The notes under the pieces are model-generated. The model searched no databases. It worked only from the letters and a program-made list of their open reading frames with translations, and was not told where the DNA came from. Position numbers and translations under genes: made by a program. From Reclinomonas americana ATCC 50394 (Eukaryota), in contig PS015129.1 of the NCBI GenBank assembly GCA_048213135.1, forward strand, positions 79,369-119,636: DNA of 40,268 nucleotides, written 5' to 3'. Below are positions 3,100 through 35,663 of this stretch, in pieces. Positions within the stretch are counted from its first letter, which is position 1. Every line of letters begins with the position of its first letter.

Positions 3100-3477
3100 T
3101 CACCTCTGCTTCTGCTCCTCCTCCTCCTCCACATCGCCACGGCGCCGCTTCTGCTGCTTGCGCAAAAAGTCCTCATAAAAGATGCGCGCCACATTGTGCC
3201 GTCGACTGAGCGGATGCACCAAATGCCGCAGCGTTCGCTGCTTGCGCACTGCACACAAGAAGGGAATGAGCGACCATGTCCTGCACGAGTCAATCTCAGA
3301 TTATAACGCAACATGCCACCGCCACTCGCTCATCAAACGACGCCACATCCATCAGGCACGTCATGGCCGACAGTCGGGCACGCATCACGGCCGACGACTT
3401 GCCGTTTTCGCAGCACACCAAGTCCACCAGCTCGGTCACGCCGTCCATCGAGAGCAGCACGGCGGCGTTTTGAGGGT
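3100..3477 (-). CDS. Last two exons (3313-3477, 3100-3248) of a hypothetical, possibly ARM/HEAT-like protein (partial)
   Basis: Splicing (cag acceptor, GTTGCG donor at 3312, gtgcag acceptor) gives PQNAAVLLSMDGVTELVDLVCCENGKSSAVMRARLSAMTCLMDVASFDERVAVALRKQRTLRHLVHPLSRRHNVARIFYEDFLRKQQKRRRGDVEEEEEQKQR*. The family call is only an impression. Confidence 0.65.
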
Positions 3478-5430: not shown

Positions 5431-8400
5431 ATGGCCTCCTCCTCCTCCTCTCCCTCCTCACCGGCTCCCAGTCGACCTCCGCTCTCCTCCGGTCGCTCCG
5501 AAGCCTCGGTGTTTCGCGATCGGTCGCCCGGCGACAAGTTCACCAATGCACTCATCGACGAGAAGAGCCCGTACCTCTTGCAGCACGCTCATAACCCAGG
5601 TCTTGCCTCACATCATCCTCTCGGTGAGGAGAGGCACGCTCGTTAACCCCGGGCCCTCCACGCAGTCAACTGGCTTCCGTGGTCGCCCGAAGCCATTCGC
5701 GAGGCCAGCGAGCGCGACTGCCTGATCTTCCTGTCGATCGGCTACAGCACGTGTCATTGGTGTCACGTTGCGTTCCGTGGTGGGACTCTCTCTCTCTCTC
5801 TCGGGAGGAGAGCGATCTGACGGCAGTGGCAGGTCATGGAGCGAGAATCGTTTGAGAATCCGGCCATTGCCGCCATCCTCAACAAGGACTTTGTGAGCAT
5901 CAAGGTCGATCGGGAGGTGAGTGGCGGGCATCATGACTGGGATGCAGAGAGGAGAAGCAGGGATTCGATTGCAGCGATGCAGGCAAAGACTGCACGTTTG
6001 TGGCTTCACAATGGCGCCTCGTGAGTTTCCTGTCTTCTCCTCTCTCTTTGTCTCTGCTTCGAAGTGTCTGTTGTTATAGCTTGTCTTCGCACTTCACTGC
6101 ATCGCCGATCTGCAGCCTGTTGTCGTCGACAGTCTCCTCAGTGATCTCTCCTCGTGCAACTGTTGTCATGCAGCTGGTTTTTCTTCATTTCATCTCTGCC
6201 CCGCTGCTTCAATGACTCTACATCACTGTTGCATAAGTAGACTTCCTTGTGCACTCCACTGCATTGCTTATCTGCATCCTGTTTTGCCGACAGTTTCCTC
6301 AGTGTCTTCCTTCTCCTCGTGATCCGAAGCGAATGTTGTCATTCATGCATGGTCTTTTCTTCATTTCGTCTCTTTCCCGCTGCTTCTTCTACTCGAGGTC
6401 ACTGATGTCCCTTCCAGTTGCACAAGTGGACTTCAATGTGCACTTCAGTTGATCTACAACCTGTTGTTCTGTTCAGTTTCCTCTGTGCAAGTGATTTTTC
6501 TGCTGCTTCTGTTGCTTCACGATTCGCCTTGTTCTCTCTCAGCTTCTGCTTTTCTGACTTTTGGTCACTGTTGCACAAGTGGACTTCCTTGTGCACTCCA
6601 CTGCTTTGCTTTTCTGCAGTCTGCGATTGCCGACAGTCACAGCAAGTGGTCTACCTTCTCCTGACTGTTTCTCTCCTCCCATTCCCTCCCTGCTTCGCTG
6701 CTTCTGTGACTCGAAGTCACTGTTGTTCTGTTCCATCCCCCTTCAGTTTTCTCCTTCTCACCAACTCCTCCTCCACCGCTCAGGAACGCCCTGATGTCGA
6801 CGCGGTCTACATGGTTTGGCCGTCGTAGATGCAGAGCACGATTCCATTTTTCATGCCCTCCTCATGCACATCCGCAGCGATTCCTGCAAGCGACCACTGG
6901 CTCTGGTGGATGGCCACTGAATGCATTCCTCACTCCCGATCTGAAACCGCTGGTGGCAAGTGCGTCTTCGGGTGACTCTCTCGTTCAGAGTCGAGATCAC
7001 TCATGTTTCCTCTGCGCAGTGACGTACCTGCCACCCGACGATCGCAGTGGACGGCCCGGCCTCCCCCGCGTGCTGCGCAATCTGGTGAGTGATATTCCGC
7101 TGCATGCAGCGAGCGCTTCCCTGTTCACCGTCCTCGCCTCATTTCGCAGGCTGCCGCGTGGCGCACCAGTCGCGATGAACTTGTTGCGAAAAACATTCCC
7201 GTCGGCCTCTTCTTCCTGCCCTATCTTCATCACTTTTCCCTCTCCTCCCAGATCTCACAAAGCCAGCAAGTTCTCGACGCACTGAAACAGGACCAGCATG
7301 GGTCCGAGTTGGGCGAGAAAGCCGCCGAATCCATGTTACAGCAGGGCCGCCAGATTGCCGAGTTGAGCGACAGCAAAATACGTGCGCACGCTGCTCTGCT
7401 TCGCACTCACTCGACTTTGCAGGTCGTGCGTTCGCCTGTTTGCTGCTCAATACGACGAGGCGCGCGGTGGCTTCTCGCGTTCACCCAAGTTCCCTCGCCC
7501 TGTGGAACTCCAATTCCTCATGCAGGCGCATGCCATTGGTCTCGGCGGAGGTCAGCACATCATCGTTGTTGTGACTTGCGTGACGAGTCCGGAGTGGCTC
7601 ACCTCTCCACTTCTGGCGGTGCAGATAGGCGCCGTCGACACACTGCCTTGCAGATGGTGACACGCACGCTCGAGTGCATGGCCCGTGGCGGCGTGTACGA
7701 CCATCTTGGTGCGTGCTGGAGAGAGGGATGTCTTGGTGTGCTGTACACTCACCCTTTGGTGCACTGCAGGTGGTGGTTTCCATCGCTACTCCGTGGACGA
7801 GTACTGGCATGTGCCGCACTTTGAAAAGAGTTACTGATGATTCTTGGTGGCGTGGGGGGGGGGGGGGGGGTTGTCGGAGAACTCACTGACGTTTTCTCGT
7901 GTCGATCAGTGATGTACGACCAAGCGCAGCTTGTGTGCGCTTACCTAGACGCGTACTTGCTCACCAAGGACGAGTACTTTGCACGTGGTGAGTGCGGTAT
8001 GAGTGGATAAGTGGGTGCTCCGAGAGCGAACACACACAAGAAAACCTACCGCTGCCCTCAAGACTGGTGTTAGTGTCGATGTTTTGAATATCGCTGCACT
8101 TGGTCAACGAGACAGCTGTTGCATGTTTGTTGATGAACGAATTGTGGTGACCCTGTATGCCCTTGCTACTCTCTCAGACTCCCAATGATGATATGATCTT
8201 TTCTTCACTCTTTCTTTAGTTCGCTGTGAGATCACCTGCAGTTGTCCTTGTTGACCAGCATGCCCTTTCTACTCTCTCCGCTCCCTCCTACTGAATTCTT
8301 CTTCCCTGTTCAAGTGGGCGCTTTCCGTGAGATTTCCTGCAGTTGTTCTTGTTGCCGCGACCTGCCACCACCACTCTCTACTTCTCCATGCCCTCTCTCT

Positions 8401-12440: not shown

Positions 12441-12661
12441 CAGAGGAGCGCACATAGTCGACGGCCTGCGCCGGCGTAAAGTCCTTGTGCAGCTTGTTGG
12501 TGTTCCACTGAGAGAGAGAGGAGGATGTGTGAGAGAGCGCGCGGGAAAACCATTGACAGCAAGACACACACACACACCTGCAGGTTGAGCTGCGGGAGAG
12601 TGGTGATGGAGCGCGCTCGGGTCGCGGTGAGACCCAGGCGGCGAGACAAGTGGCCGAGCAT
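12441..12661 (-). CDS. glnA: First two coding exons (12578-12661, 12441-12507) of the glutamine synthetase, including a presequence, on an apparently inverted contig
   Basis: MLGHLSRRLGLTATRARSITTLPQLNLQ|WNTNKLHKDFTPAQAVDYVRSS+G ends in phase 1 and joins the phase-1 exon at 13672 (GT GCG AAG ATG), giving TPAQAVDYVRSSGAKMLDFKFVD, a typical GSI N-terminus. Confidence 0.8.
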
Positions 12662-13191: not shown

Positions 13192-13671
13192 GAGAGAGAG
13201 AGAGAGTAGTAGTACNNNNNNNNNNNNNNNNNNNNNNNNNNNNNNNNNNNNNNNNNNNNNNNNNNNNNNNNNNNNNNNNNNNNNNNNNNNNNNNNNNNNN
13301 NNNNNNNNNNNNNNNNNNNNNNNNNNNNNNNNNNNNNNNNNNNNNNNNNNNNNNNNNNNNNNNNNNNNNNNNNNNNNNNNNNNNNNNNNNNNNNNNNNNN
13401 NNNNNNNNNNNNNNNNNNNNNNNNNNNNNNNNNNNNNNNNNNNNNNNNNNNNNNNNNNNNNNNNNNNNNNNNNNNNNNNNNNNNNNNNNNNNNNNNNNNN
13501 NNNNNNNNNNNNNNNNNNNNNNNNNNNNNNNNNNNNNNNNNNNNNNNNNNNNNNNNNNNNNNNNNNNNNNNNNNNNNNNNNNNNNNNNNNNNNNNNNNGA
13601 CTCTCCCTTTTTCGGGTCGCTTGCTATGTGTCTTTTTGGACGCGGTTGCTGATTGATTACATTATTCGCAG

Positions 13672-15074
13672 GTGCGAAGATGCTCGACTTCAAGTTTGTC
13701 GACATGTTTGGCACGTGGCAGCACTTGGGTGTGCCGGTGGCCAGCAACCTCTCGGAGTCGCTGTTTGCCAATGGACTCGGATTCGATGGTTCCTCCATTC
13801 GCTGCTGGGAGGTGCGTGAGGGTTGTCTTGCACTTCTCTCTTTGTTTATTTGTTGTGTGTCTGGGTGGCTGCGAGTGGGACGGTGCATCGTGAGCGGGCT
13901 GTGCTGGGTGTGGGGTGTGATGAGATTTTCCTGTATTGAGTTGTTCCGTCTCCCGTATTGTGTTTCATGCTTTCTTGGGTGCAGTCGCATGGACTTGCTG
14001 CTGCATTTACCTTTGTCTCTTCACGTGTCTTGTGTTGCATTCTCTGTGCGTCGTCTTCGTCTCTTAAGTGTTCTGTGCATGGCTTGTCGTTTTTCACTTG
14101 GCTCAACACCTCATTTCGTTGCTGTTCTGTGATCCTCTTCCGCCGACTATTGACCAAGCTGCTGCTCTCTCTTGCACACCATCTTTGTGCATGGCTTGCC
14201 GATCTTCACTTTGCGCACTTTTCCTTTTCTGTCTATGCATGTAACTTGCTTTGTTGTTCTCTGTGATCCTCTCCACACATCGGCTGTTCTGACCAAGCTG
14301 CTTTTGTATCTGCTCTTGCCTGTGATCATGCATTCTTACTCTCTTTCCCTCTCCACACAGGGCATTGAGAACTCGGACATGGTGCTGGTGCCTGACGCCA
14401 AGACCGCCGCTGTGGACCCGTTCCACAAGGAGAAGACCGTCTCGTTCACTTGGTTGCGTTTTGCTTTCCTTCCTTCCCTGACCCTTCTCCCTTCTGATCG
14501 TTGTTCGCAGCTCGATCAACAACCCCGATGGCACGCCGTACGACCGCGATCCACGGTTCATTTTGGACCGTGCGCACAAATACTTGCAGTCGACCGGCAT
14601 TGCCACCTTCTTCAACGTGGGACCCGAGGCCGAGTTCTTTGTCTTTGACGGTGTGTTGACATTTCCTGCCATTGTGTGCTACAACGCCTCTCTCACCCCT
14701 CACCCCCACCCCACAGGCGTCTCGTACGAGCTGCGCCCGAACTCTGCCTCGTACTCCCTCGAGTCCGAGGAAGGGCCGTGGGAGACCGGCAACAAGTTCT
14801 TCCGCGGCAAGCCCAACCTCGGCTACAAGCCGCGCGTCAAGGGCGGCTACTACCCCGTGAAGCCGAACGACTACGTGAGCGACGTGCGTGCCGATATGGC
14901 GTTGGCGATGGAGGTGTGTTTGCATTTTTCTTCGCAATTCGTGTGGACGGGAGTCTGATTGTTTGTACACAGAGCTTGGGCATTCCCATTGAGGCGCAGC
15001 ACCACGAGGTCGGTGCCGGCGGTCAGTGCGAGATTGGCATGAAGTACAACGAGGCTCGCTTGATGGCTGATCAG
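13672..15074 (+). CDS. glnA: Type I (GSI-beta-like) glutamine synthetase, partial (exons 13672-13811, 14361-14452, 14511-14650, 14717-14913, 14973-15074; C-terminal half absent)
   Basis: LDFKFVDMFGTWQH, GLGFDGSSIRCWEGIENSDMVLVPD, PYDRDPR, VGPEAEFFVFD, NLGYKPRVKGGYYPVKP and EAQHHEVGAGGQCEIGM are GlnA signature motifs. Confidence 0.95.
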
Positions 15075-15090
15075 GTGCGTGACTTTTTCC

Positions 15091-15162
<72 letters not shown>

Positions 15163-15980
15163 NNNNNNNNNNNNNNNNNNNNNNNNNNNNNNNNNNNNNN
15201 NNNNNNNNNNNNNNNNNNNNNNNNNNNNNNNNNNNNNNNNNNNNNNNNNNNNNNNNNNNNNNNNNNNNNNNNNNNNNNNNNNNNNNNNNNNNNNNNNNNN
15301 NNNNNNNNNNNNNNNNNNNNNNNNNNNNNNNNNNNNNNNNNNNNNNNNNNNNNNNNNNNNNNNNNNNNNNNTTCCCCTCTCTCTTTCTCTCTCTCCCTCC
15401 TTTCAGGATATGAATGCAAAACGAGAAAAACACAAAATGCGTTTCTTGCTCACAAGGCGACCGACAGTACTGCTTCACTATGGTACAACACAATATGCGT
15501 TTCTGGAAACGCTGTAGCGACGCCACCACCATTTGACAACACAAAATGCGACACTGTGTAGACAGAACCTTACAAGCGTCGCTGTGGTGTTCTCAAGGCG
15601 ACGACGAACCACCCAACCTGCACATGCTTCTCGGCTCCGCACTGTCAATCGATACGTATGCCCCGCTCGTCTGGCACCCAATCCACCATCCAACCACGCG
15701 CTAGCAAGCGATTAGCAGAAGCCTGGACTGCTGCTGCCGTAAAGACACACCTGCCAAGCAAAGCAGTCGTTGCTGACTCTTCAGCACGATGCATTGATGC
15801 CATGCAAGAGAGTTACTTTTGCTTCGCCCATGACTAACGCCAGCACGGCGTGCTTGTGCCTCGTATCACCTTGCCCCCCCCCTACTCCCCAACTACATGT
15901 ACAACACGCGCACGTTGCGGCTCTTTTCATTTTGTATTGAATCAGTCGCACGCAGCAAAGCACAAAACAGAGGGCGCTGT

Positions 15981-16264: not shown

Positions 16265-17230
16265 GATTGCTGATTGTTTTTTGTTGAAGGGAAACTGTGA
16301 TGGTGGTGGGGATGGCATCAGTGAGCACAAGGAGAAGGGCGAAGAGGGGAGGGAGCGAGGAGGCATGGCCAAGAGAGCAAGTGCGAAAATTAGACATGAC
16401 GAGTGGGTGAGAGTGGGCAGCAGCGAGGGAAAGGAGAGGCGAGGTGCCTGTGTGCTAGGGTAGAGAGGTCACGTGTGGATCGTCGTGGCCACCGCGTTAC
16501 TCACCGACAAAAATGCGATGAAGGTCGTGAAAATTCCACTGTACTCATGCAAATGTCAAGGTTACAAAAGAAACGGACGAGCCCACCACGCTGCCTCCAA
16601 AGCATCAGCACAACATCCTGTTGACGGGAGCTGTGGATTTTTTCTGCATCCAATCTTGCGCTTGACTGCGAAGCATGACCGGAACCGTGGCGTTTTCTGT
16701 TGTCGCATACGATACATCAAATCTACGCTGCAGTGAGACAGCAGCAGCAGCGATGCCTCGCGGTGGTGACCTAAGAATGTGAAGTGAACACTGGACAACG
16801 ATCAAGCGAATTCCATGACGCGCAGCGCAGTGAGGCCCGCCACACTCCACGCCGTGCGGTACGTCTCCACTCCCTTCTATCGAGCGGCTTGTCGATGTGC
16901 CTATCTGTTGCTTTCTTTCCTTGTTCTCTTTGCCTCCTCTCGCTCTTCTCCCCTCATCATTTCCACTCATTTTTCTGGCCATGGTCCCTGGCCTGGCCCT
17001 CATCATCTACGACACCCTCTCTTCCATCTCTTTCCCCCCTCCCGCCTCCCCCCGCGACAACGTCATGACGGTGTGTACGCACCTTTCACTAAAAAAGAAG
17101 AAGAAGAAGAACCTCAAAAAAACCCCAACTGAGACTGAGACGGTGGAGGGATCATTTCTACCTGCCTTCTCGCAATCACTTATTCCCTCTCTCCCTCTCC
17201 TCTCTCTATCTCTCCCCCCACACGCATGTT

Positions 17231-19790
17231 TTACACGCGGTCGCTCCTGGCCGAGTGGCTGCCATCACGAGGCGACGCAGCGTGCGCGTGGATGTTGTGT
17301 CCGTTGACGACCAGCGGTGCACTGGCCTCGTCGTCGTCGTCGTGGTGCGCAAACGAAATGTTGCTGTTGCGCTTGCCAATGGCACTGGCGGCGTCGTGGC
17401 ACAGCCACATGGCGAACTCGGGCTGCTTCGGCACGGCGTTGTAGTCGTCCGGCACGTGCCACTCGGTGTGATCCTGGAACAGCTGGTCCTTTGGCGGCAC
17501 CGTGGGGCAGAAGACACGCACAATGAAGCCGCTGAATGCGCCGCAGCCGAGGCCCATGGCCAGACTGATGCCAGTGGAGGCCAACTGGTACAGCGCCTGG
17601 TCATCGCCACGAGCGAACAGCGAGTTGAAGTCCTGGCCGTACACAATGGAGGAGGCCGTGGCTGTGCTGACCACACCCGAGATACCGCCGAGAATGCCGG
17701 GCAGGCCGTGCAGCGCCAGCACGCCGCAAGTGTCCTGCAGACCAATGGTGCGCTCCAGGAACGGAATAATGTACTTGTAGGTGATGCACGACAGAATGCC
17801 GGCGACAAAGCCAATCGTGGCGGCGCCCTGTGCGTGAGCAGGAGCAGTGGGGAGTGAGGTGGTGGATCGGAAAAATTAGGAAATGGTGAGTGACACGCAA
17901 CACCAGGCCCGATAATAAGATCCGACGACGTGCCGACAGCGACACCGCCAGCCAGAGTGGCGTTCTGGATCATGACCATGTCAAAGTGACCGTTGGTGAG
18001 CTTGCTCATGGCGAACGTGCTGATGACGCTGGACGAGAGCGACAGCACAGTGTTGATGACGACGCGGAACTGCGAGTTGCCAGAGATGGCGGCGTTGAAC
18101 GACGGCCAGCTGCAAGACAAAGAGGTGAGCACGACAGCGAGGAAGACATGGAAGAAGGCCGCCGCTGCAGCGGTGCGTCCACGAAACTAACTGTAAAGAG
18201 GAGAGTAGCATGTCAGAAAATGAAACGAACAAGAGAGAGAGAATGATGGGTACGCAACATCCACAGGAAGAACGTTCCAATGACGGCGAAGCTGCAAACA
18301 AGCAAGGACAGGATGTGAGGCGAACAGCGCACGCGAAGTGTCTCTGACAGGTTTGCAAATCACACACACACACTCACATGTCGCTCTGGTAGCTGGAGGT
18401 GCGATCGGACGCGGTCTTGCCCTCCTTCGGCGACAGTACCATGCTGGCCGCCAGGCCAAAGAAGGCACCGAACTNNNNNNNNNNNNNNNNNNNNNNNNNN
18501 NNNNNNNNNNNNNNNNNNNNNNNNNNNNNNNNNNNNNNNNNNNNNNNNNNNNNNNNNNNNNNNNNNNNNNNNNNNNNNNNNNNNNNNNNNNNNNNNNNNN
18601 NNNNNNNNNNNNNNNNNNNNNNNNNNNNNNNNNNNNNNNNNNNNNNNNNNNNNNNNNNNNNNNNNNNNNNNNNNNNNNNNNNNNNNNNNNNNNNNNNNNN
18701 NNNNNNNNNNNNNNNNNNNNNNNNNNNNNNNNNNNNNNNNNAATGAGGGCGCCAAAGCTGATGAGGAAGGCAATGGCGGCAAAGTTGCCGAGGATGAGGT
18801 TGTTCACACTCAGCGACAGTGTCTCCCAGTGGCCCGTGGCCACATTGTGCCAGAACGCCTCGGTCAGGATGCCCCACTCAATGCACACAGCGGCCAGAAT
18901 CATGGTGAAGCCGAGCGCGCCAAAGCCGTAGCGACGCAGGAAGGTCATGAGGTAGCCGAAGCCTGTGTGAGTGAGAGAGTGGAAATGAGAGATTCGGCAT
19001 CGAGACATATACGGAAAAAGCAGGGAGATCTGCATGCGTGCGTCTCACACACCGATGAATGTCATGATGCAAATGCCTGTGGCATGTCGCACACACGTCA
19101 GTTTGGATGCACACCACTCACACACGGAAAAAAAGTAATGGTGAGTTGTGTGTGACGCAACCACTATAGAAGGTGTAAAACGAGGCGACGCGGAACTCGG
19201 GGCCGACTTGATCGGGAATGGAGAGGCCATTCGAGTAATCCGTGAGCGTAAAGTAGAGAATGATAATGGAGACTTGGAAGATGACGAGCGGGAGGAAGAG
19301 ATCCGTCACACGCGACGTCCACGAGCGCGCAATGTGATGATCGTGCGCGCTCATGGTCTTGGAGCGCGCATGCTGAATGTCGCGGTCGACCTCCATCAAC
19401 TGCGTGTCCATGCAGCGCAGGTTCAATTGCAAGCCAACAGTGATGCAGCAACAAAGCGAACACACACACGCAACTCGATTGCGCCGCTGGCGCAGCTCAA
19501 TGAGGTTGCGCTCCAGCTCCGCCACCTGCGCATGCGAATCTCCCTCCGCCGCAAGAGTGCCTGCGCGCGTGCATGCATGACACACAAGTCACGCACTTGC
19601 ACACCAGTGTGCGCCAGCAAAGTGAACATAGATACGGAACGAGAGAGGGCCTCCAGCGTGGAAATCTCCTGCGCGCTCAGTGACGCCAGTTGACGCGACA
19701 GTTGACTGCATGCACACAATGAGCAACACACGCACGCACACTCATGCACGCACAGAGAGAGAGACGCAACTCATTGCTTGTGTGCGCCAT
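17231..19790 (-). CDS. Rh-type (Rh50/Amt superfamily) ammonium transporter 1, interrupted by gap 18475-18740
   Basis: [65 protein letters not shown] and DTCGVLALHGLPG. The start was rebuilt as MAHTSND (exons 19771-19790, 19641-19705, 19475-19560, 19162-19399, 19053-19076...). Confidence 0.92.
18188..18190 (-). other. Predicted 3-nt microexon (TTA) in Rh transporter 1
   Basis: ctttacag|TTA|gtttcg. It restores LW-I-Y-WPSFN. Confidence 0.75.
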
Positions 19791-19941
19791 TTTCCTCTGC
19801 TCACTCGCTCTCTTCAAGCGCACTAACTCCTTTCGTTGTGCCGGATTTGGCAGTGGCGACCAGGTGTCTTTTTGGACCGCGGGGAAATTTTAAGAAAGGG
19901 AGAGTCAGTGTGTCTTGCCAACCAAGAAGCGAGAAGAAAGA
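19791..19941. promoter_or_regulatory. Putative bidirectional promoter between the divergent Rh genes
   Basis: Only 151 bp separate the predicted ATGs at 19790 (-) and 19942 (+). No specific element was identified. Confidence 0.5.
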
Positions 19942-22448
19942 ATGGACTATGAGATGCGAGAGCTGGGCCAGCCGCATGGCGCGTGGCCATTGGGCGGGAA
20001 CAACAAGGAGGCGGCGAACCGGTATGTGCGCGGAGTGGAAGTGCGTGCATGCTTACGTGAGCCCAATTGAACTGATGCGCGCTGTGTGCAGTTTGGTGAC
20101 CGAAGTGGCGCAGCATGCAGAGGTAATAGTCGTCGGTGCTGTTGGTGCGCGCGCAGTGCTCATTGTCGTACACACGCACAGAGGCTCAAGCAAAGAGAGC
20201 AGCATGCAGTCGACGATTTGAACAGTTGCGCTCTCCCTTCCTGTTTGTGCACTCTCCACATTGCTCACACGACGCGCAGACAAACTGTCGGATGCCACTG
20301 TGGCGCCGCACGAGGTGGACACTGCAGAGGTGGCGCTGGCCAAGGCGCGCCGCAAGAGTGAAAAGGTACACGGAGACTCTCCCTCTCCCTCACTCTCACT
20401 CCCAATGCGCTCACTCTGGCGTGCAGATTACGGAGTACCTGCAAGAGGCCAGCAACATTGCGCATCGCGAGTCCGTGGCGCAGCGAGTGTATCCACTCCC
20501 GCACGATGACAAGGGCGCGACGCATGATGGTGGCATTGATGACGTGACTGAGGCGCACCCGCACTCGTCGTTCTGCGACCGCCTGCTCACTGTCATTCCG
20601 GCGCTGCTCTTCGAGACGGTGATGATCATTCTCTTCTGGCGCCTCACGGCCTACGACTTTGCCGTGCTCAGTGCCGCGCAGAGTGGCGCGCCTGCTCGTG
20701 TCACTGATTTCTACGAGTTGAGAATCTCCACTCTCCGCATTAGTCGTGTCTCTCTCTTCTGTCTCGTTCGCTCACCCCTTCTTTGTCTGTGTGCGACGCA
20801 GCATGTACACGGGCATTGCACTCATGGTGTTGGTCGGTTTCGGCTTCCTCATGACATTTATGCGCTCGCACGGATTCGGTGCGCTGGGACTCACCTTTTT
20901 CGTCACGGCCGCCGGCATTCAGTGGGGCATGCTGTGCGTCGCCTTCTGGGAGGTGGTGCACACGGGTGAATGGGATCACCGCTTCGAGCTCAGCATCCTT
21001 CTGCTGATCGAGGGTCTCTTTGCCGCCGCCGCCGTGCTCATCACGCTGGGCGTCGTCATTGGCCGTGTCTCGTTTGTGCAAGTGCTGTACATTCTCGTCC
21101 TCGAGATCCCACTCTACTCGATCAACTACTACATTGGCAAGCACCACTTCAAGGCCTCCGACATTGGCGGCAGGTGAGCGAGAGAGGGGGGAAACGCAAA
21201 GATGTCTCGTGCAGCACGCTGACGACAGTCTCGTGTCGCCACAGCATGTACATTCACTTGTTCGGCGCCGTGTTCGGCCTCACTCTCTCCAAGTTCCTGA
21301 AGGAGGACGCGGTGGCGGCGCGCCAGCGCTCCTCTCAGGAGGACGCCGCCACACGCTACAACAGCGAGCTCACCGGTTTCCTCGGCACTCTGTTCCTGTG
21401 GATGTTGCGTGCAGTGCGCTGTCTGCTGCGTCTCTTTTTTTTTGTCTTAGTGCTCACTCTTCCCCCTCCACATTACTCCCCTGTTTGCCATGCTCAGCTA
21501 GTTGCGTCTGCCACGTGAGCTGTTTTAAGATGCAATCATGCCCTTATGCTTACCATCCTTCTTCTGTCGTCCTCGCAGCTGGCCATCGTTCAACGGCGCG
21601 TTCGCCGGCGACAACCAGTACCGCGTGGTCATCAACACTGTGCTGGCGCTCCTCGGTGCCGTGATTGCCACCGTGGCCACCTCCCACGTGTGCAAGGGCC
21701 AGTTCGATATGGTGACCATGCAGAACGCGACGCTGTGCGGCGGTGTGGCCGTCGGCACTGCTTCCGATCTGGTCATTGGCTCGGGAGTTGCGATATACTC
21801 ACCCGGCCACGCTCTCCTTCTTCTTTCCTCAACTGTCACTGAACGTCCTCCTGTGCAGTCTGCCATCATTGTCGGCACCTGCGCCGGCATCGTCTCCACT
21901 CTTGGCTTCCTGTACATTACGCCATACCTGACCGCCCGGTTCGGCCTGAAGGACACGTGCGGCGTGCTCAACCTGCACGGCGTCCCCGGTGTGATTGCCG
22001 GCATTGGTGGCATGTTTGCCACGGCGCTGGCCAAGGAGATCAACTACGGCCAGGAGTTCGCGCTGCTGTTCCCCAACAACAAGAAGCAGCCGGCGTACCA
22101 ACTGGCCACGCTGGTGGTGTCCATTGGCATTGGATTTGCCGGCGGCTTCCTCTGTGCCATGTTCCTCAACCTCGTTGCGTTTTCACCTCCCCTTTTAAGC
22201 ATCCTTTTGCGCGTCGGACTCACGCAGTGGCGCAGACTCGCTGCATGATGTCACCGGTGAAGCGCTGGTACAGCGACAAGGTCGAGTGGCACACACCAGA
22301 CGACATTGTCGTGCACCCGCTGATCGCCAAGAACATGCAGCTGCGAGTTGCGTTTGCTTGCTCCAATCCTCTCCGTGGTCTATACGTGTGCGACTCACAC
22401 ATCATCGTGCATGCATGCATCCCACAGGCGGCCACAAGTGCCCTCTAA
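19942..22448 (+). CDS. Rh-type ammonium transporter 2
   Basis: [70 protein letters not shown] (both pore His present) and YSDKVEW. ATG 19942, TAA 22446-22448. Confidence 0.94.
21498..21500 (+). other. Predicted 3-nt microexon (CTA) in Rh transporter 2
   Basis: atgctcag|CTA|gttgcg. It restores LW-I-Y-WPSFN. Confidence 0.78.
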
Positions 22449-22723: not shown

Positions 22724-24975
22724 ATGGCCGCGCAACCAGCCGCCGCTGAGCAAGAGCGCCTGATGGCGGAACTGTGCGATATTTGCGGCATTGACAGAGC
22801 TCACGCGTTGCCGCTGCTGCAGCGCACACACTGGGATGTGGCTGTTGCGTGTATGTGCGCTTTCTCCACACACATAGCAGTGACCAACACATGTGTGCAG
22901 GAGGCTGCCATGATGCAACTCGAGGAGGCTCAACAAGTGCCCGACTTGCCGCCGAGTGTTTCGTCTCTCCCTCTCACTCACACACCCACGCTCTCCCTCC
23001 CTTGCGCACACACTCACACTCAAACCAATGTGCCACTACGCAGGGCGATTTCGCAGTCGCGTTGGCCCTGGCGGCAGCGGACGAAGGGGCTGCTGCATGG
23101 AACCCACCTGCTGCGCGACACAACCAACCCCAACCTGAGCAGCCGCTGTCCGTGCCCGCAGCGCCCGCACCTGCACGCGCGGCACCCGTTCCCGCACCAG
23201 CGCAGCAACAATTTGCAGACGTGGAGCGTCGTGTGGCGCACTCTCTGGCCTCTCCGCTGGTGGCACAAGCCGGTCCGGTGGCCGAAGCTGCTCCGTATCG
23301 CGCAGCAGCACAACCGCAATCACTGCCGTCGTACCCGGAAGCATCGCCACCGCGTGCGCAGTATGTTCCACCGGTTCCGGCGCCATCGCCAGTGGTATTA
23401 CCACCACCAGTGGCTCCTGCGCCCGTGGTTCCACCCGTGGCTGTGCAACCAGCTGCTGCTGCCGCGGCTGCAGCTGCACCTCCTGCTGCTGTCGGCGACT
23501 ACGGAGACGAGGCGCTGAATGACGAGTGGGCACTGGCGATTGCAGCGGCGGCGGCGGAACCCGAGCCGCCCGAGGCCGACTTGCCGGCGCGCGTGCTACA
23601 CCTGGAGACGATGAATGCACGGGTGCGTGGTTGCATGTGCTGGTCGTATTGTGGTGTGTGACACTCACCTCTGTGCAGCTGATTCGTTTGCTGGCCGAGA
23701 GCCAGGCTGAGGTGTGTGTATCGTCGGCAATGTATTCTCTCTCCCCACGAATTGACTGACTTGGTTCGCAGGTGGAGGAGCTCACCGGTCAGATGAGTGT
23801 GCTGCTGATGCGCCTGGTGAGTCGAGACAAAGAGAGGGACGCGCTCCACGGTGATTTGACGTTTCCACCATATACAGGATGCCACGGAGCGGGCGGCGAT
23901 GGCTGCTGGTGTGGAGCTGCCGCGTGTGGATTCCCCCGCTGCTGCAGCGGCACCGGCCAGGCCGTTCCCACTCATGGATCTGGCGGCGCAGCGGCAGTCT
24001 CCACCGCGGTTCCGCGCCGAGCCCGTGGCAGCAAGAGCAGCGGCACCAGCGGCAGCCGCGGCAGCCGCCGCACCTGCCGGCGATCCTTCTGAGCGGCCTA
24101 TAACTGTGCGCATGCGACACGGCGCAAATCTCACAGACAGTTGCGTGCACTGACGTGAGAGACCTCGAATGTGCTTCCATTCTCACCGTCGATATTACGC
24201 AGTTCGTGTCAGACCTTCGGCAACGATTGCCGAGTGGAAGCGGAGTTGCGTGTCCACTGCATTGTGCTCTTGTGCTTGCAGTGTGTGTGTGTGTGTGACC
24301 ACCATTTGATGTGCAGTTGTACGCGCGGCCATCCCAGCTTTCGCGCACACGACAGACATGTCGCTGCGATTGATCCGCCGTGGGCGTGAGGTGGTGGATC
24401 CCAACACCGTGGCCGGTTCTGGCACAGAGGAAGGCGAAACCGTAATGGCGATGCAGCGGTGTGTGAGCACGCACAGTCACCTCCTGCAAGTGTCATTGTT
24501 TTCACTCACGCGCTGCCACAGGATTGCGGGCTCGGACCGCCGACTCAAGACCGACCTTCAGCGCCTGGCACACGGTGTTGCCAAGCGCTTGCAGGGTGTC
24601 CACGCATACGACTTTGCGTGGACGCCCGACGCGCATGTCATTGGACACGAGCCCGGCCAACGCGAGTTTGGCGTGATGGCACAAGAGCTGGAAGCGGCCT
24701 TTCCGACGCTGGTCGGCGACGCAGGCCTCGTGGCCACAGGCCACGTGACAACCGCCGACGACAGCAGCGTCACCTTCAAGGCGGTAGCGTACGACCGCAT
24801 CGCTGTGCTGCTGGTGGACGCCCTCAACGAGCACACCGAAGCCCTGGAGCGGACCGAGCGAGCACGACAGGAACTCGCGGCGCTGGTTGATGCACAGGCG
24901 AAATTGCTTGCGGCGCAACACGAGGCGTGCGCGGCATTACTTGCGAGAGTCAACGCACTAGAAAATCAAGAGTGA
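22724..24975 (+). CDS. UBA-like / coiled coil / ubiquitin-like / peptidase S74 (ICA) fusion protein, paralog A (exons 22724-22843, 22901-22957, 23044-23622, 23679-23711, 23772-23816, 23878-24139, 24203-24244, 24317-24458, 24522-24975)
   Basis: UBA-like: ELCDICGIDRAHALPLLQRTHWDVAEAA. UBL: ITVRMRHGANLTDIRVRPSATIAEWKRIVRAAIPAFAHTTDMSLRLIRRGREVVDPNTVAGSGTEEGETVMAMQRIAG. S74: SDRRLKTD...FGVMAQELEAAFP...VAYDRIAVLLVDALNE, then a coiled coil. All nine exons are phase-consistent. Confidence 0.88.
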
Positions 24976-25151: not shown

Positions 25152-27514
25152 ATGAGCAGACCCAATAGCATTGGAGGCGGCAACGCACAGCAGCCGGTGG
25201 GCGGTGATGTGCCGGAGCAGCCGGGTGGTGGGCGCCTGTCACACACCGAGCAGGAGGCCGCACTGCAGGAGATGTGTGACATTTGTGGCATTGATCGCGA
25301 TGCAGCGCGACCAGTGCTGGAGCGCGCAAACTGGAACGTGCATGTTGCGTGTGGGAGGGAGAATCAGAGAGAGAGAGAGAAAGAGAGTGAGAAGAACATG
25401 GACACAAACACGAGCAATCACAAGTGTTTTTCCGCGTGATCGCTCTTCTGCTGCTGCTCGTGATCCGTCTCTCTGTGTGTACATGCTCTTCCTTACACTC
25501 TCTGCTCTCACTGCTGTCCATCAATACCGCGTTTCTTGCTCACTCTTTCTCATTCTCTGTCGTGTGCTGTTGTTGTCCACTCTGCGTTCACAGGAAGCCG
25601 CCTCGCATTACCTCGACAGCGTGCATGCCATTGATGAGCCGGAGCCGGTGATGATTGGCGGCCCTGGTGTGCTGCTCATGCGACTGGTGCGTTGTCTCGT
25701 TGTGCTGCTTGTGTGTGTACACAGCGCGCTCATGTCTCGGACAATACCAACAATCTCGCAGGCGGCTGCTGTCGGTGCGGAACAGAGTCAGGCACGTGTG
25801 CAGGAGCTGGAGACGCAGAATGCCGAGGTAGGTGTCCTTCCAGCGTTGTTGTTGTCGTTGTTGTGGGGAGTCTCACTGGAATGCATAGTTGACGCGGCGG
25901 CTGGACGAGAGTCAGAGTCAGGTGCCGTGACTTGCGCGAGTCTTTCTCTGTCTGGTGTTGTGTCCTCACTGTTGTTTTGTATAGTCGGAGGCCCGTGCTC
26001 GTCACGTGCGTGAGCTGCTGGCACAGGTGGAGCGACTGCAGCAACAGCTGGTGTGTGTATGTGTTTGTGGGTTCCGTTTGTTTCTGCATGCTGGATTGTT
26101 CACGTTTCCGCTCCACTGACAAGGCCCGTGCGGAGAAACACGTGGAGGACATGCGCGCGGAAGCCAATCGTGTGGCACAAGCGGCAGCCACTGCAGCAGC
26201 AGCAGCTGCCGCCGCTGCCGGCAACATGTACCAGCCAAGTGGTGAAGCATCAGGTGCCGCTGCCGCTGCTGCAGCTCCGGCCGCCGCACCAGCTCCAGCC
26301 GCTTCTCCTGTGGAAGCACCCGCTCCAGCCGCCGCAGTGCAGGCACCGCCCGCAGCAGCAGCCGCTGCGCGTAATGCGCCCGCCGCTGGACCCGTCCTGG
26401 TGGCGCCACCGCAGTCCATGCGCAACATGGATGCTGCCGCTCCACCACCAGCAGCACCAGCAGCAGCCCCCGCGCACCCTGCACCGCACCCCGCACCTGC
26501 ACCCGCACCCGCTGCAGCGGCTGCCGCAGCCTCGGCCGCCGCGCCTGCTGCAGCAGAGGACAGCAATCGCACGCCAGACGGACCCCAACCACCTGCCAGC
26601 TCCGAAGGCAGAAGAATCAATGTCCGCGTGCGCGATGCTCAGCATTTGCACACTGGTTTGTCAAGTGATCCCGTTCTTCTTGTCCTCTCCCGTGCCTCTG
26701 CTCAAGCACAACATTGCGCACAGTGACTGCCATGACCAACGAAACCATCAGTCAGTTGAAGCAGAGTTGCGTATCTGTGTGCGGCATGTACAGGTTTGCT
26801 TTTCTTGAGCACTTATCTCTACTTGACAGCCATCCGCACTGCGTTGCCACGACTGGCGCACCTGAGTGACGAAGACATGCGACTGGTGTACCGCGGACGC
26901 GAGATCTCGCTGGACTCCTCCACACTTGCATCGGTGCCATTCGAGGACGAGGGCGTGGTCACCATTGTGCAGCGGTAAGTGGACGCAGTGGGGGTGTGTC
27001 TTGGTGAGTGCGCTCAAAGTGATACTATTTTCCCTGCAGCATTCGCGGCTCGGACATGCGCTTCAAGACCGATTTGCGACGCCTTGAGGGCGGCGTGTCG
27101 GAGCGGCTGCGCGCAGTGCACGCGTACCAATTTGAGTGGAATTCCGAGGCTGCGCGTGTCGGCTACACACCAGGCGATCGCGAGTTCGGTGTCATGGCGC
27201 AAGAACTGGAGGCCGCCTTCCCGTCGCTGGCTGGCGGTGCGGAGAGTGGCGGAGTGGTCGTCGACACGCAGGTACCGCCATCGAGTGGGTCGTCGGCGCC
27301 GGCCTCCTTCAAAATGGTGGCCTACGAGCGCATCGCCCCGATCCTCATCGATGCCGTCAACGAGCACACCGAGGCGCTGCAGGTGGCGGAGCGCGACTGC
27401 GATCGGCTGCAGTCGCTGGCCGACCAGCAGGCGAAACAACTGCGGGCACAGCAGGAACTTCTCACCATGTTGCAAGCACGTATCGAGGCGCTGGAGAAGG
27501 CGCCAAAGCAGTGA
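25152..27514 (+). CDS. UBA-like / coiled coil / ubiquitin-like / peptidase S74 (ICA) fusion protein, paralog B (exons 25152-25343, 25594-25686, 25762-25827, 25889-25921, 25985-26050, 26124-26655, 26724-26765, 26830-26974, 27040-27514)
   Basis: UBA-like: EMCDICGIDRDAARPVLERANWNVHEAASHYLD. UBL: INVRVRDAQHLHTVTAMTNETISQLKQTIRTALPRLAHLSDEDMRLVYRGREISLDSSTLASVPFEDEGVVTIVQRIRG. S74: SDMRFKTD...FGVMAQELEAAFP...VAYERIAPILIDAVNE. The UBA and UBL intron positions and phases match paralog A. Confidence 0.88.
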
Positions 27515-34064: not shown

Positions 34065-35663
34065 ATGAAACGACGAGGACGAGGTGGTGGCGGTGGTGGT
34101 GGCGATGGTGCGAGTGACCGGAAACGTCGCAAGCGACACTATGTCGTGGGCAAGCCGCGCAACAAGGTCATGCAAAACAACAAGCACACGAAACGAGCAC
34201 ACACAGACATGCACTCACACGAATGCAACAGATTCTGCACGCAGGCAGCAGTGGCTTGCTGTGCACCTTTGTGGAGGGCAAGCGCGGACTGGCGCTGCGC
34301 GAAGTTCTCGGCCTCCTGGAGGATGTTTCGTGCACAATGCGTGAGACTCTCTCTCACTCTTCTTACTCATGCTTCTCTTCTCGCCGCAGTATGGGTTGAA
34401 CGAGATGCAGGCGGCAGAGGGAGCTAGCAAAGTGGGTGCAGTGGGAGCGAGCTCCATACCCGCCGTCCACGATGATGATGATGATGATGAGGAGGAGGAG
34501 GAGGATTTCATGAAGGGGACAAGCACTGCAGCCGCGCTCGAAAGCGAGCTGGTGCAGCTGCGAAAGTGCGTGCTGAAGGGCGCAGGTAGTGTGTTTTCTC
34601 GAGCTGCTTTTGCTTAGCTTGTGTGCAGATCGGGCTTGAGTGGCTCCGATGTGTTTGCCGTGGCCGACGTGCGCAGCGTCAAGGGCCACTTCTTTCTGGA
34701 GCTGCAGACGGCGAACAAGGCCGTGGTGACGTCGACTGCTGCTTCGTCGTCCATGGCAGAGGCGACTGAGGATCGTGTCGACGACAAGGAGGAGGACTCG
34801 GATGCCGACATTGAGGTGGCGGCGCAGAAAGAGCGACTGCGTGCCATGCCACCCATTGATGTCGTGGAGTTGGCAGAGAAGGTGTTTGGCAAGTTGATTC
34901 AGGAGAGCATTGTGCGAACGAGGTAAGCGAGCGCGGTTGCGATGCACCGACAGCGACGACGACCAACATGAGAACGCGTCGCAGATTTGTGTTCCGCTGC
35001 ATCCCGATTCAGATCACCTGCCGCGCCACAGTGGAGAAGATCTGCGAGGTGCTGAAGCCGATGCTGGATGCGACCTTTCCCCGCCCGGCGTTCTGCCCGT
35101 TGCGAGTTGCGTCGTCGTCTGCGTGATCGCCACCTCGGGTGTCTTGCTGAAAAAATCGCCGCGCAGTACGGAGCCGAAATCAAGGTCCGCTGCAACTCGA
35201 GCGTCTCCTCCTCGTCACTGCTGCGTGCCATCACGCAACTCATTCCGCCGGTGCACTTGCTTGTTCTGCGCGAGGCGCCCATCACTGTCGTGTGCCACAT
35301 CGAAGGGGTGCGTTCCGCCCCTCTGCTGCCAGCACATGGACCTGCATCATGCTCACTTGCCAGCTTGCAGACTGTGGCATGTCTCTCGGTGCTGCGCAAC
35401 TTCCAAAAGTACCGATGCTTCAACTTCAACGCCATTGGGTGAGTTGCACACAGAGTTGACTTGGCAAGCACTGTGCTCATCATCAACGTCGCAGCGATCG
35501 GTCGGCACCATCGGCGGGCACGTCAGCGACAACAACGTCCACAGCCGCCGCCGCTGCTGCCGCTGGCGATGGAGAAGATGATGAGGAGGACGATGATGCA
35601 GAGGAAGACGAGGACGAGGAAGAAGAAGATGAGGATGAGGATGAGGAAGAAGCTGCGAAGTGA
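34065..35663 (+). CDS. THUMPD1: THUMP-domain protein (THUMPD1/Tan1-like) with an acidic tail
   Basis: Basic N-terminus, ILHAGSSGLLCTFVEGKRGLALREVLGLLEDY, ALESELVQLRK, TRFVFRCIPIQITCRA, YGAEIKVRCNS and ACLSVLRNFQKYRCFN. Confidence 0.82.

Follow-up and report, generated by a model that had tools for sequence, protein, structure and literature searches.

In animals, microexons of 3 nucleotides (nt) are known as neuronal, regulated cassette exons, which are mostly alternative, lie between long introns and come with dedicated enhancers and factors. Introns of the GC-AG type carry donors that, as a rule, match the rest of the donor consensus well. Coding microexons of 1–15 nt, which are often unannotated, have been described in plants, where those of APC11 and VPS55 measure a single nucleotide (Yu et al., 2022; PMC8831610). 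The present study deals with an element of comparable size in a 40,268-nt stretch of DNA from Reclinomonas americana ATCC 50394 (contig PS015129.1; G+C content 57.7%, six runs of N), referred to as the window. It contains two genes for Rh-type ammonium transporters, which are arranged head to head and transcribed divergently, the minus copy from approximately 19396 to 17229 and the plus copy from approximately 20427 to 22448. Each of these genes very probably has a coding exon of only 3 nt, TTA at 18190–18188 on the minus strand and CTA at 21498–21500 on the plus strand, close to the conserved protein motif WPSFN.

As in plants (PMC8831610), a tiny coding exon would lie between two introns, keep a conserved protein intact, be conserved across gene copies and across species, and commonly go unannotated. 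The plant microexons are backed by RNA sequencing and reverse transcription PCR (PMC8831610), whereas the Rh exons are predicted from sequence. A further difference is the host, an intron-rich, unicellular-type eukaryote with introns of 52–110 nt and GTTGCG-type donors, in which the exon is 3 nt long and splits two codons. With the 3-nt microexons of animals, the putative Rh exons share the size class, the preservation of the reading frame and the difficulty of mapping and annotation. Unlike those exons, they are flanked by short introns and look obligatory for a conserved helix. GC-AG introns need to be compared as well: a GC stands 3 nt after the outer GT, and its use would also give a family-typical protein, but the two GC candidates fit the donor consensus poorly. 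As exons of 1–3 nt are already documented in plants and animals, the Rh case adds another instance and opens no new field. What sets it apart is that it has persisted in two old paralogues, that it splits two codons and that many donors of its host have U at position +3.

In both genes, the upstream exon ends in CTG TGG AT and is followed by GTTGCGT, and the sequence AG-NTA-GTT(G/T)CG lies inside the gap before C TGG CC(A/G) TCG TTC AAC (in DNA motifs containing AG or GT, hyphens mark proposed exon borders). Specifically, a 33-nt exon of the minus copy (18259–18291) ends in TTC CTG TGG AT, which encodes F-L-W and holds the first two bases of an Ile codon. It is followed by an upstream sub-intron of 68 nt (18191–18258; GTTGCGTAC...CTGAC...TCTCCTCTTTACAG), the proposed exon TTA (18188–18190) in the context CTCTTTACAG-TTA-GTTTCGTG (cag-TTA-gtttcg), a downstream sub-intron of 78 nt (18110–18187; GTTTCGTGG...CTCAC...TTGTCTTGCAG) and an exon (17902–18109) that begins with C TGG CCG TCG TTC AAC, the last Tyr base followed by WPSFN. 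Similarly, an exon of the plus copy (21245–21403) ends in TTC CTG TGG AT and is followed by an upstream sub-intron of 94 nt (21404–21497; GTTGCGTGC...CTCAC...TTTGCCATGCTCAG), the proposed exon CTA (21498–21500) in the context CATGCTCAG-CTA-GTTGCGTC (cag-CTA-gttgcg), a downstream sub-intron of 78 nt (21501–21578; GTTGCGTCT...CTTAC...GTCGTCCTCGCAG) and an exon (21579–21786) that begins with C TGG CCA TCG TTC AAC. Joined with the triplet, the minus copy reads ATT TAC and the plus copy ATC TAC, which is Ile-Tyr in both; the sole difference is the synonymous third base of the Ile codon.

The upstream sub-intron of the minus copy has a branch-like CTGAC, the A of which is 22 nt ahead of the AG, and the downstream sub-intron of this copy has CTCAC, 16 nt ahead of the AG. 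In the plus copy, CTCAC stands 41 nt before the AG of the upstream sub-intron, while the downstream sub-intron has only CTTAC. The branch-like motif CTNAY was accordingly tallied in three of the four sub-introns, the fourth being the plus downstream one with its CTTAC. Pyrimidines made up a fraction of 0.73–0.82 of the 22 intron bases that immediately precede CAG. Re-reading of the sequence confirmed what the original prediction had put forward on this point, namely the letters and coordinates, the upstream CTGAC and CTCAC, the pyrimidine tracts and the joining to Ile-Tyr; the 15-mers it had derived for the 3-nt exon, the GC-donor and the skipped forms were likewise correct.

Splice signals were scored with matrices built on 22 trusted introns from the Rh genes, a glutamine synthetase gene and other clear cases, which were picked by eye and protein homology from the calls of a strict exon/intron finder; the four test sub-introns were left out. 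All 22 trusted donors begin with GT, seven of them with GTTGCG and none with GC, and all 22 trusted acceptors end in (A/G)CAG. The window contains 55 copies of the hexamer GTTGCG, where 23.7 would be expected. Twenty-one of the 22 trusted introns are 52–110 nt long and one has 549 nt, and CTNAY is present in 17 of the 22, located 5–57 nt and mostly 12–30 nt before the 3' end. The outer donors (5.9 in the plus copy, 7.2 in the minus copy) and the donors after the triplet (7.8 and 5.2, respectively) scored within the range of the trusted donors (4.5–11.1). The internal acceptor of the minus copy reached 14.1 and the final acceptors 13.5 (plus) and 12.7 (minus), where trusted acceptors range from 5.3 to 15.9. 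Divided by the triplet, the gaps give sub-introns of 68 and 78 nt in the minus copy and of 94 and 78 nt in the plus copy, all of which fit the usual 52–110 nt; left undivided, the gaps measure approximately 146–175 nt.

Among 76,708 positions on both strands of the window, 345 AG-NNN-GT sites were found, 15 of which had a summed acceptor and donor score of at least 10, both test sites included. The minus-copy site ranked second (20.0) and the plus-copy site 14th (10.1) among the 345. Block-shuffled windows held on average 3.6 sites at a score of at least 10 and 0.005 sites at a score of at least 19.9. Judged by its score, the putative internal site of the minus copy is as good as any real acceptor–donor pair. 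A rough estimate of chance origin, for which the observed rates, approximately 92 and 66 eligible gap positions and a factor of 3/16 for a family-like second residue were used, gave approximately 0.003 in the plus and 0.0002 in the minus copy, and a value in the order of 1e-6 for both jointly. Other high-scoring AG-NNN-GT pairs were located on the plus strand at 7423–7425 (score 16.5), 34586–34588 (15.4), 12493–12495 (13.8) and 24282–24284 (20.9, situated in a GT repeat), and on the minus strand at 23110–23108 (15.0). These five pairs may represent additional 3-nt exons or may be due to chance; no family was recognisable for the surrounding genes.

At the protein level, exactly two residues separate the aromatic residue from WPSFN in 22 of 24 database homologues (the other two lack the motif by the search pattern), in all 32 metagenome loci (31 of them contiguous, locus L007 interrupted by an intron just after the W codon) and in all 20 further protein matches. 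The same spacing was found in 128 of the 130 assessable proteins among 149 cluster representatives, 12 of which lack the motif by the pattern and 7 of which are too short upstream. Both exceptions, P0026 and P0106, look like open reading frames (ORFs) that run on into an intron. None of the 24 homologues, 32 metagenome loci, 130 assessable representatives and 20 further proteins has a spacing of one residue. Likewise, the match of the plus copy to PF00909 stops at profile position 201 in the upstream exon and begins again at position 204 in the downstream exon, so that exactly two profile positions are absent in between. Given two-residue spacing in the assessable relatives, plain joining of the outer exons to W-I-W is very unlikely to yield the functional form, and the readings that remain are W-I-Y-W, through a 3-nt exon, and W-M-F-W, through a GC donor 3 nt downstream. 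Among the relatives that share the local length pattern, P0027 is the closest (67% identical); it has L-Y, with Tyr at the second position.

Introns were also encountered near the motif in relatives. In L007 (positions 1080–1270), an intron GTAAAG...TTCAG lies directly after the W codon of LWMFW-PSFN, and in P0050, P0119 and P0155 an intron probably occupies the same place. P0106 (...LLVRY-WPSFN), read at the protein level, would agree with an intron only where the upstream sub-intron lies. Judging by these sequences, intron positions around the WPSFN motif differ among relatives.

Over 215 aligned codons, the proteins of the two Rh paralogues are 51% identical (110 codons). Where the residues agree, four-fold degenerate sites are alike in 36 of 67 cases (54%), compared to 38.5% expected from composition. 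The sub-introns of the two copies, which the original prediction had described as unrelated in appearance, indeed align no better than shuffled sequences (z 0.9–1.8), as do two other intron pairs of the Rh genes. AG-NTA-GTT.CG is nevertheless kept in both old paralogues, and within the triplet only a synonymous base differs. As the introns are unalignable and the paralogues old, a neutral motif of 11–12 nt would not be expected to survive.

Additional evidence comes from P0026, a 142-amino-acid ORF from a 971-nt assembled contig, obtained in the search of cluster representatives. Over the 69-residue Rh exon of the plus gene, P0026 (79% identity, read-through) and P0027 were the best matches; ORFs of the window itself were not among the matches of this search. 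P0026 reads as genomic read-through, ...HFAVSCA...HS-WPSFN...LIGPPVAS, that is ...LHFAVSCARLQNGFPILSLLTHPPPHS-WPSFN...DLLIGPPVASLL... Its H-S-W fits CAC AG-C TGG, with the acceptor at the same place as in the window genes, and P-V-A, which follows LIGP, agrees with a GTTGCG donor positioned like that of the next intron in the window genes. In the six-frame translation of the window (80,532 residues), the pattern [SPTA][VA]SC[GAVDE] occurs six times; five of the six occurrences lie on A-GTTGCG, one of these five being the putative plus-copy microexon. On this basis, A-V-S-C-A in P0026 most likely reflects a GTTGCG donor that lies 64 nt upstream of the acceptor and is preceded by A. The stretch LLLTLCLHF in front of it back-translates to pyrimidine-rich DNA. 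In this reading of the protein, the DNA of P0026 could have G CAG TTA GTTGCG C at a distance of 64 nt from the AG-C TGG acceptor. Its source is either another species or a third paralogue.

Several observations weigh against a 3-nt exon. P0026 is known as a protein only, so its CAG and TTA are compatible rather than read. The commonest residue pair in relatives is M-F (41 of 130 representatives; 11 of 32 metagenome loci), while I-Y is rarer (8 of 130 representatives, 2 of 32 metagenome loci, 6 of 22 database homologues). M-F would result from a single GC-AG intron in each gene (TGG ATG TT-GCGT), with an mRNA encoding W-M-F-W-P-S-F-N, and the internal AG-NTA-GTT.CG would then be chance or a non-splicing element. 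Such an intron, which we regard as quite improbable, would also restore the two-residue spacing, needs one ordinary-looking event only, and its plus-copy donor GCGTGCAG is similar to one trusted donor, GTGTGCAT, save for position +2. The residue pair M-F, however, is the inevitable product of AT, the GTT with which the usual donor begins, and C, and hence is no independent support. The GC donors score -4.5 (plus) and -9.5 (minus), below all 22 trusted donors; with position +2 disregarded, they reach 0.4 and -4.6, still below every trusted donor, versus 3.7–5.2 for the GT sites. The minus-copy donor GCGTACCC has almost no consensus likeness, and none of the 22 trusted introns is GC-AG. Furthermore, the introns would be 146 and 172 nt long, compared to 52–110 nt for 21 of the 22 trusted ones. 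A GC-AG intron also fails to account for the internal acceptor–donor pair of both old paralogues with their unalignable introns, for a second pyrimidine tract with its branch-like motif, and for the GTTGCG-type donor that P0026 implies 64 nt upstream of the acceptor.

In the plus copy, the internal acceptor GCTCAG scores only 3.2, below all 22 trusted acceptors; its T at position -4 is seen in none of them, and the nearest CTNAY, at 41 nt from the AG, is outside the usual 12–30 nt. By itself, this site is not convincing, since pairs at its score level are not rare (15 at a spacing of 3 nt, 6–17 at other spacings). A crude exon/intron finder that uses signals only skipped the plus-copy triplet and made other tiny exons, at 3248, 7423–7425, 8343–8344, 13626–13627, 24282 and 34586–34588, which were disregarded as unreliable; nor was the 3-nt exon that it called in the minus copy counted as evidence. 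The original expectation that gene finders would miss the exon is plausible, borne out by this finder in the plus copy but not in the minus copy. If the triplet were skipped in all or most transcripts, the form chosen by the finder for the plus gene, the protein would read W-I-W-P-S-F-N, one residue short, with the internal signals as decoys or signals of a minor isoform. In favour of this form, the outer donors and final acceptors are good sites (5.9/13.5 and 7.2/12.7), and the internal acceptor of the plus copy is weak. Skipping is nonetheless highly improbable in our judgement: no relative in any set examined has one-residue spacing, the gap in the Pfam profile is two positions rather than one, and the internal motif kept in both old paralogues argues for its use. 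A one-residue deletion in a transmembrane helix beside WPSFN would, moreover, turn the helix face. A further GT donor downstream in the plus copy (GTGCGC after TGG ATG TTG CGT GCA) was rejected because it breaks the frame, and reading of both genes revealed no other AG near the final acceptor.

A 3-nt exon is favoured over these alternatives because of its usual donors, the low scores of the GC candidates, the intron lengths, the pyrimidine tract, CAG and branch-like motif that each upstream sub-intron has, its presence in old paralogues and the compatibility of P0026. The core of the original prediction, a 3-nt exon in both paralogues with a short intron on either side, has the strongest indirect support of the explanations considered, from scores, lengths, spacing, paralogue age and P0026. 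Its extension to more hidden microexons found no support within the window, where acceptor–donor pairs 3 nt apart show no clear excess (15, 9 and 4 at three thresholds, versus 6–17, 2–10 and 0–3 at other spacings).

From the genomic letters, we infer that the triplet is included in the mRNA; its inclusion may be constitutive, and the flanking introns may be removed in a given order. The 3-nt exon would complete the Ile codon with its third base and open the Tyr codon with two bases, giving an mRNA that encodes W-I-Y-W-PSFN, and would restore the two-residue spacing of the relatives in a pore-lining helix. Each of the two short introns would be recognised as a unit of its own (intron definition), which fits introns of mostly 52–110 nt, and they would probably be removed in succession. 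With a donor complex that takes up exon positions -3 to -1 and an acceptor complex that extends to the first exon base, the two would overlap on an exon of 3 nt. As the exon leaves no room for adjacent acceptor and donor complexes, stepwise removal appears likely. A wider scenario can be drawn in which the 3-nt exon is old and obligatory in the Rh lineage and present in the paralogues and in at least one other species, its splicing proceeds in two ordered, recursive-like steps, the spliceosome routinely accepts donors with U at +3 (GUUGCG, approximately 40% of the donors here), maybe by bulged pairing with U1, and many more exons of 1–6 nt are hidden; taken together, this is rather unlikely.

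With respect to the donors, T at +3 was observed in 9 of the 22 trusted introns (7 GTTGCG, 1 GTTGAG, 1 GTTTTG), beside GTGCGT, GTGAGT and GTGTGT. This unusual donor class occurs throughout the window, for example at 14453, 17901 (minus), 19161 (minus), 21787, 22174, 22347 and 33063. GTTGCGT resembles GTGCGT with one additional T, which would fit a bulged pairing with U1, although this is speculation. To judge from titles and abstracts, none of the papers retrieved in a literature search deals with a GTTGCG consensus of donors.

The limits and identity of the two genes were derived from three-frame reading and matches to the Pfam family PF00909, for the minus copy also from homologues. The minus copy (17229–19396) starts with ATG at 19396–19394 and stops at approximately 17231–17229; the 5' end of the plus copy (20427–22448) is imprecise, and its stop codon TAA lies at approximately 22446–22448. 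Four exons of the plus gene match PF00909 and cover profile positions 41–123, 154–201, 204–271 and 276–377; alone, two of these matches reach 20.6 and 23.0 bits, where the cut-off for the whole protein is 23.2 bits. The exons of the minus gene cover positions 204–272 (the exon beginning with the last Tyr base) and 277–385, with E-values down to 7.6e-15. The closest solved relatives of the plus gene are of the Rh and not of the Amt/Mep type (human RhCG 3hd6, E 1.7e-14; human RhAG 7uzq; Nitrosomonas Rh50, NeRh50), and the named database matches are 'ammonium transporter Rh'. WPSFN is present in both genes. Histidine motifs were found as IHLFGA and LHGVPG in the plus gene and as LHGLPG in the minus gene, the first pore histidine of which is expected inside, and hence masked by, the N run 18475–18741 that covers part of its coding sequence. 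WPSFN and two pore histidines are what we take to be typical features of the Rh branch of the Amt/MEP/Rh family. On domain, motif and homologue evidence, both genes are assigned to this branch of the family (PF00909) as Rh50-type ammonium channels. For the 123-residue exon of the plus gene, the best full-length protein match is 44% identical, and no spliced-transcript protein from a close relative of the Rh genes was found in the protein collections.

The exon structures of the two copies differ in other places too. The minus gene has a 24-nt exon (19053–19076, minus strand; G-ICIMTFI-G) flanked by introns of 85 and 90 nt, the second of which has no counterpart in the plus gene. The first introns of the two genes lie approximately three codons apart and differ in phase.

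A gene for a GlnA-like, bacterial (type I) glutamine synthetase adjoins the Rh pair at 13672–15075 and beyond (plus strand), with N runs at both ends. It has at least five spliceosomal introns, one of them of 549 nt, and the one exon that was searched gave a single database relative with 50% identity. Together with the two Rh channel genes, it forms a possible nitrogen-assimilation neighbourhood. The N run 15163–15371 is bordered by long (CT)n/(GA)n runs (15085–15162 and 15372 onward) and looks like an assembly gap at a microsatellite. Further along the plus strand, the Peptidase_S74 'chaperone of endosialidase' domain was detected in two paralogous exons, 24523–24849 (E 1e-11) and 27041–27382 (E 6e-12); this domain is known from MYRF-like membrane-bound transcription factors. 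At the left end of the window, two near-identical stretches on the minus strand (approximately 270–290 and 650–670; ctcggagcggg..c-GTTGCG.GTG.CAGTC..CTGTC.GCACGACAC.TCCACTCC) are spaced approximately 383 nt apart, which suggests a tandem repeat of some 380 nt.

For annotation, a conserved motif that is one residue short across an intron of double length is a signature of a hidden microexon, a kind of exon that is easily overlooked in automatic annotation. Should the 3-nt exon be real, any gene model that lacks the triplet would give both Rh channels a one-residue deletion or two wrong residues in a helix beside WPSFN. A minimal exon would then have been kept by selection in two paralogues for a long time, and intron recognition could maintain an exon that is too small to be bound as an exon.

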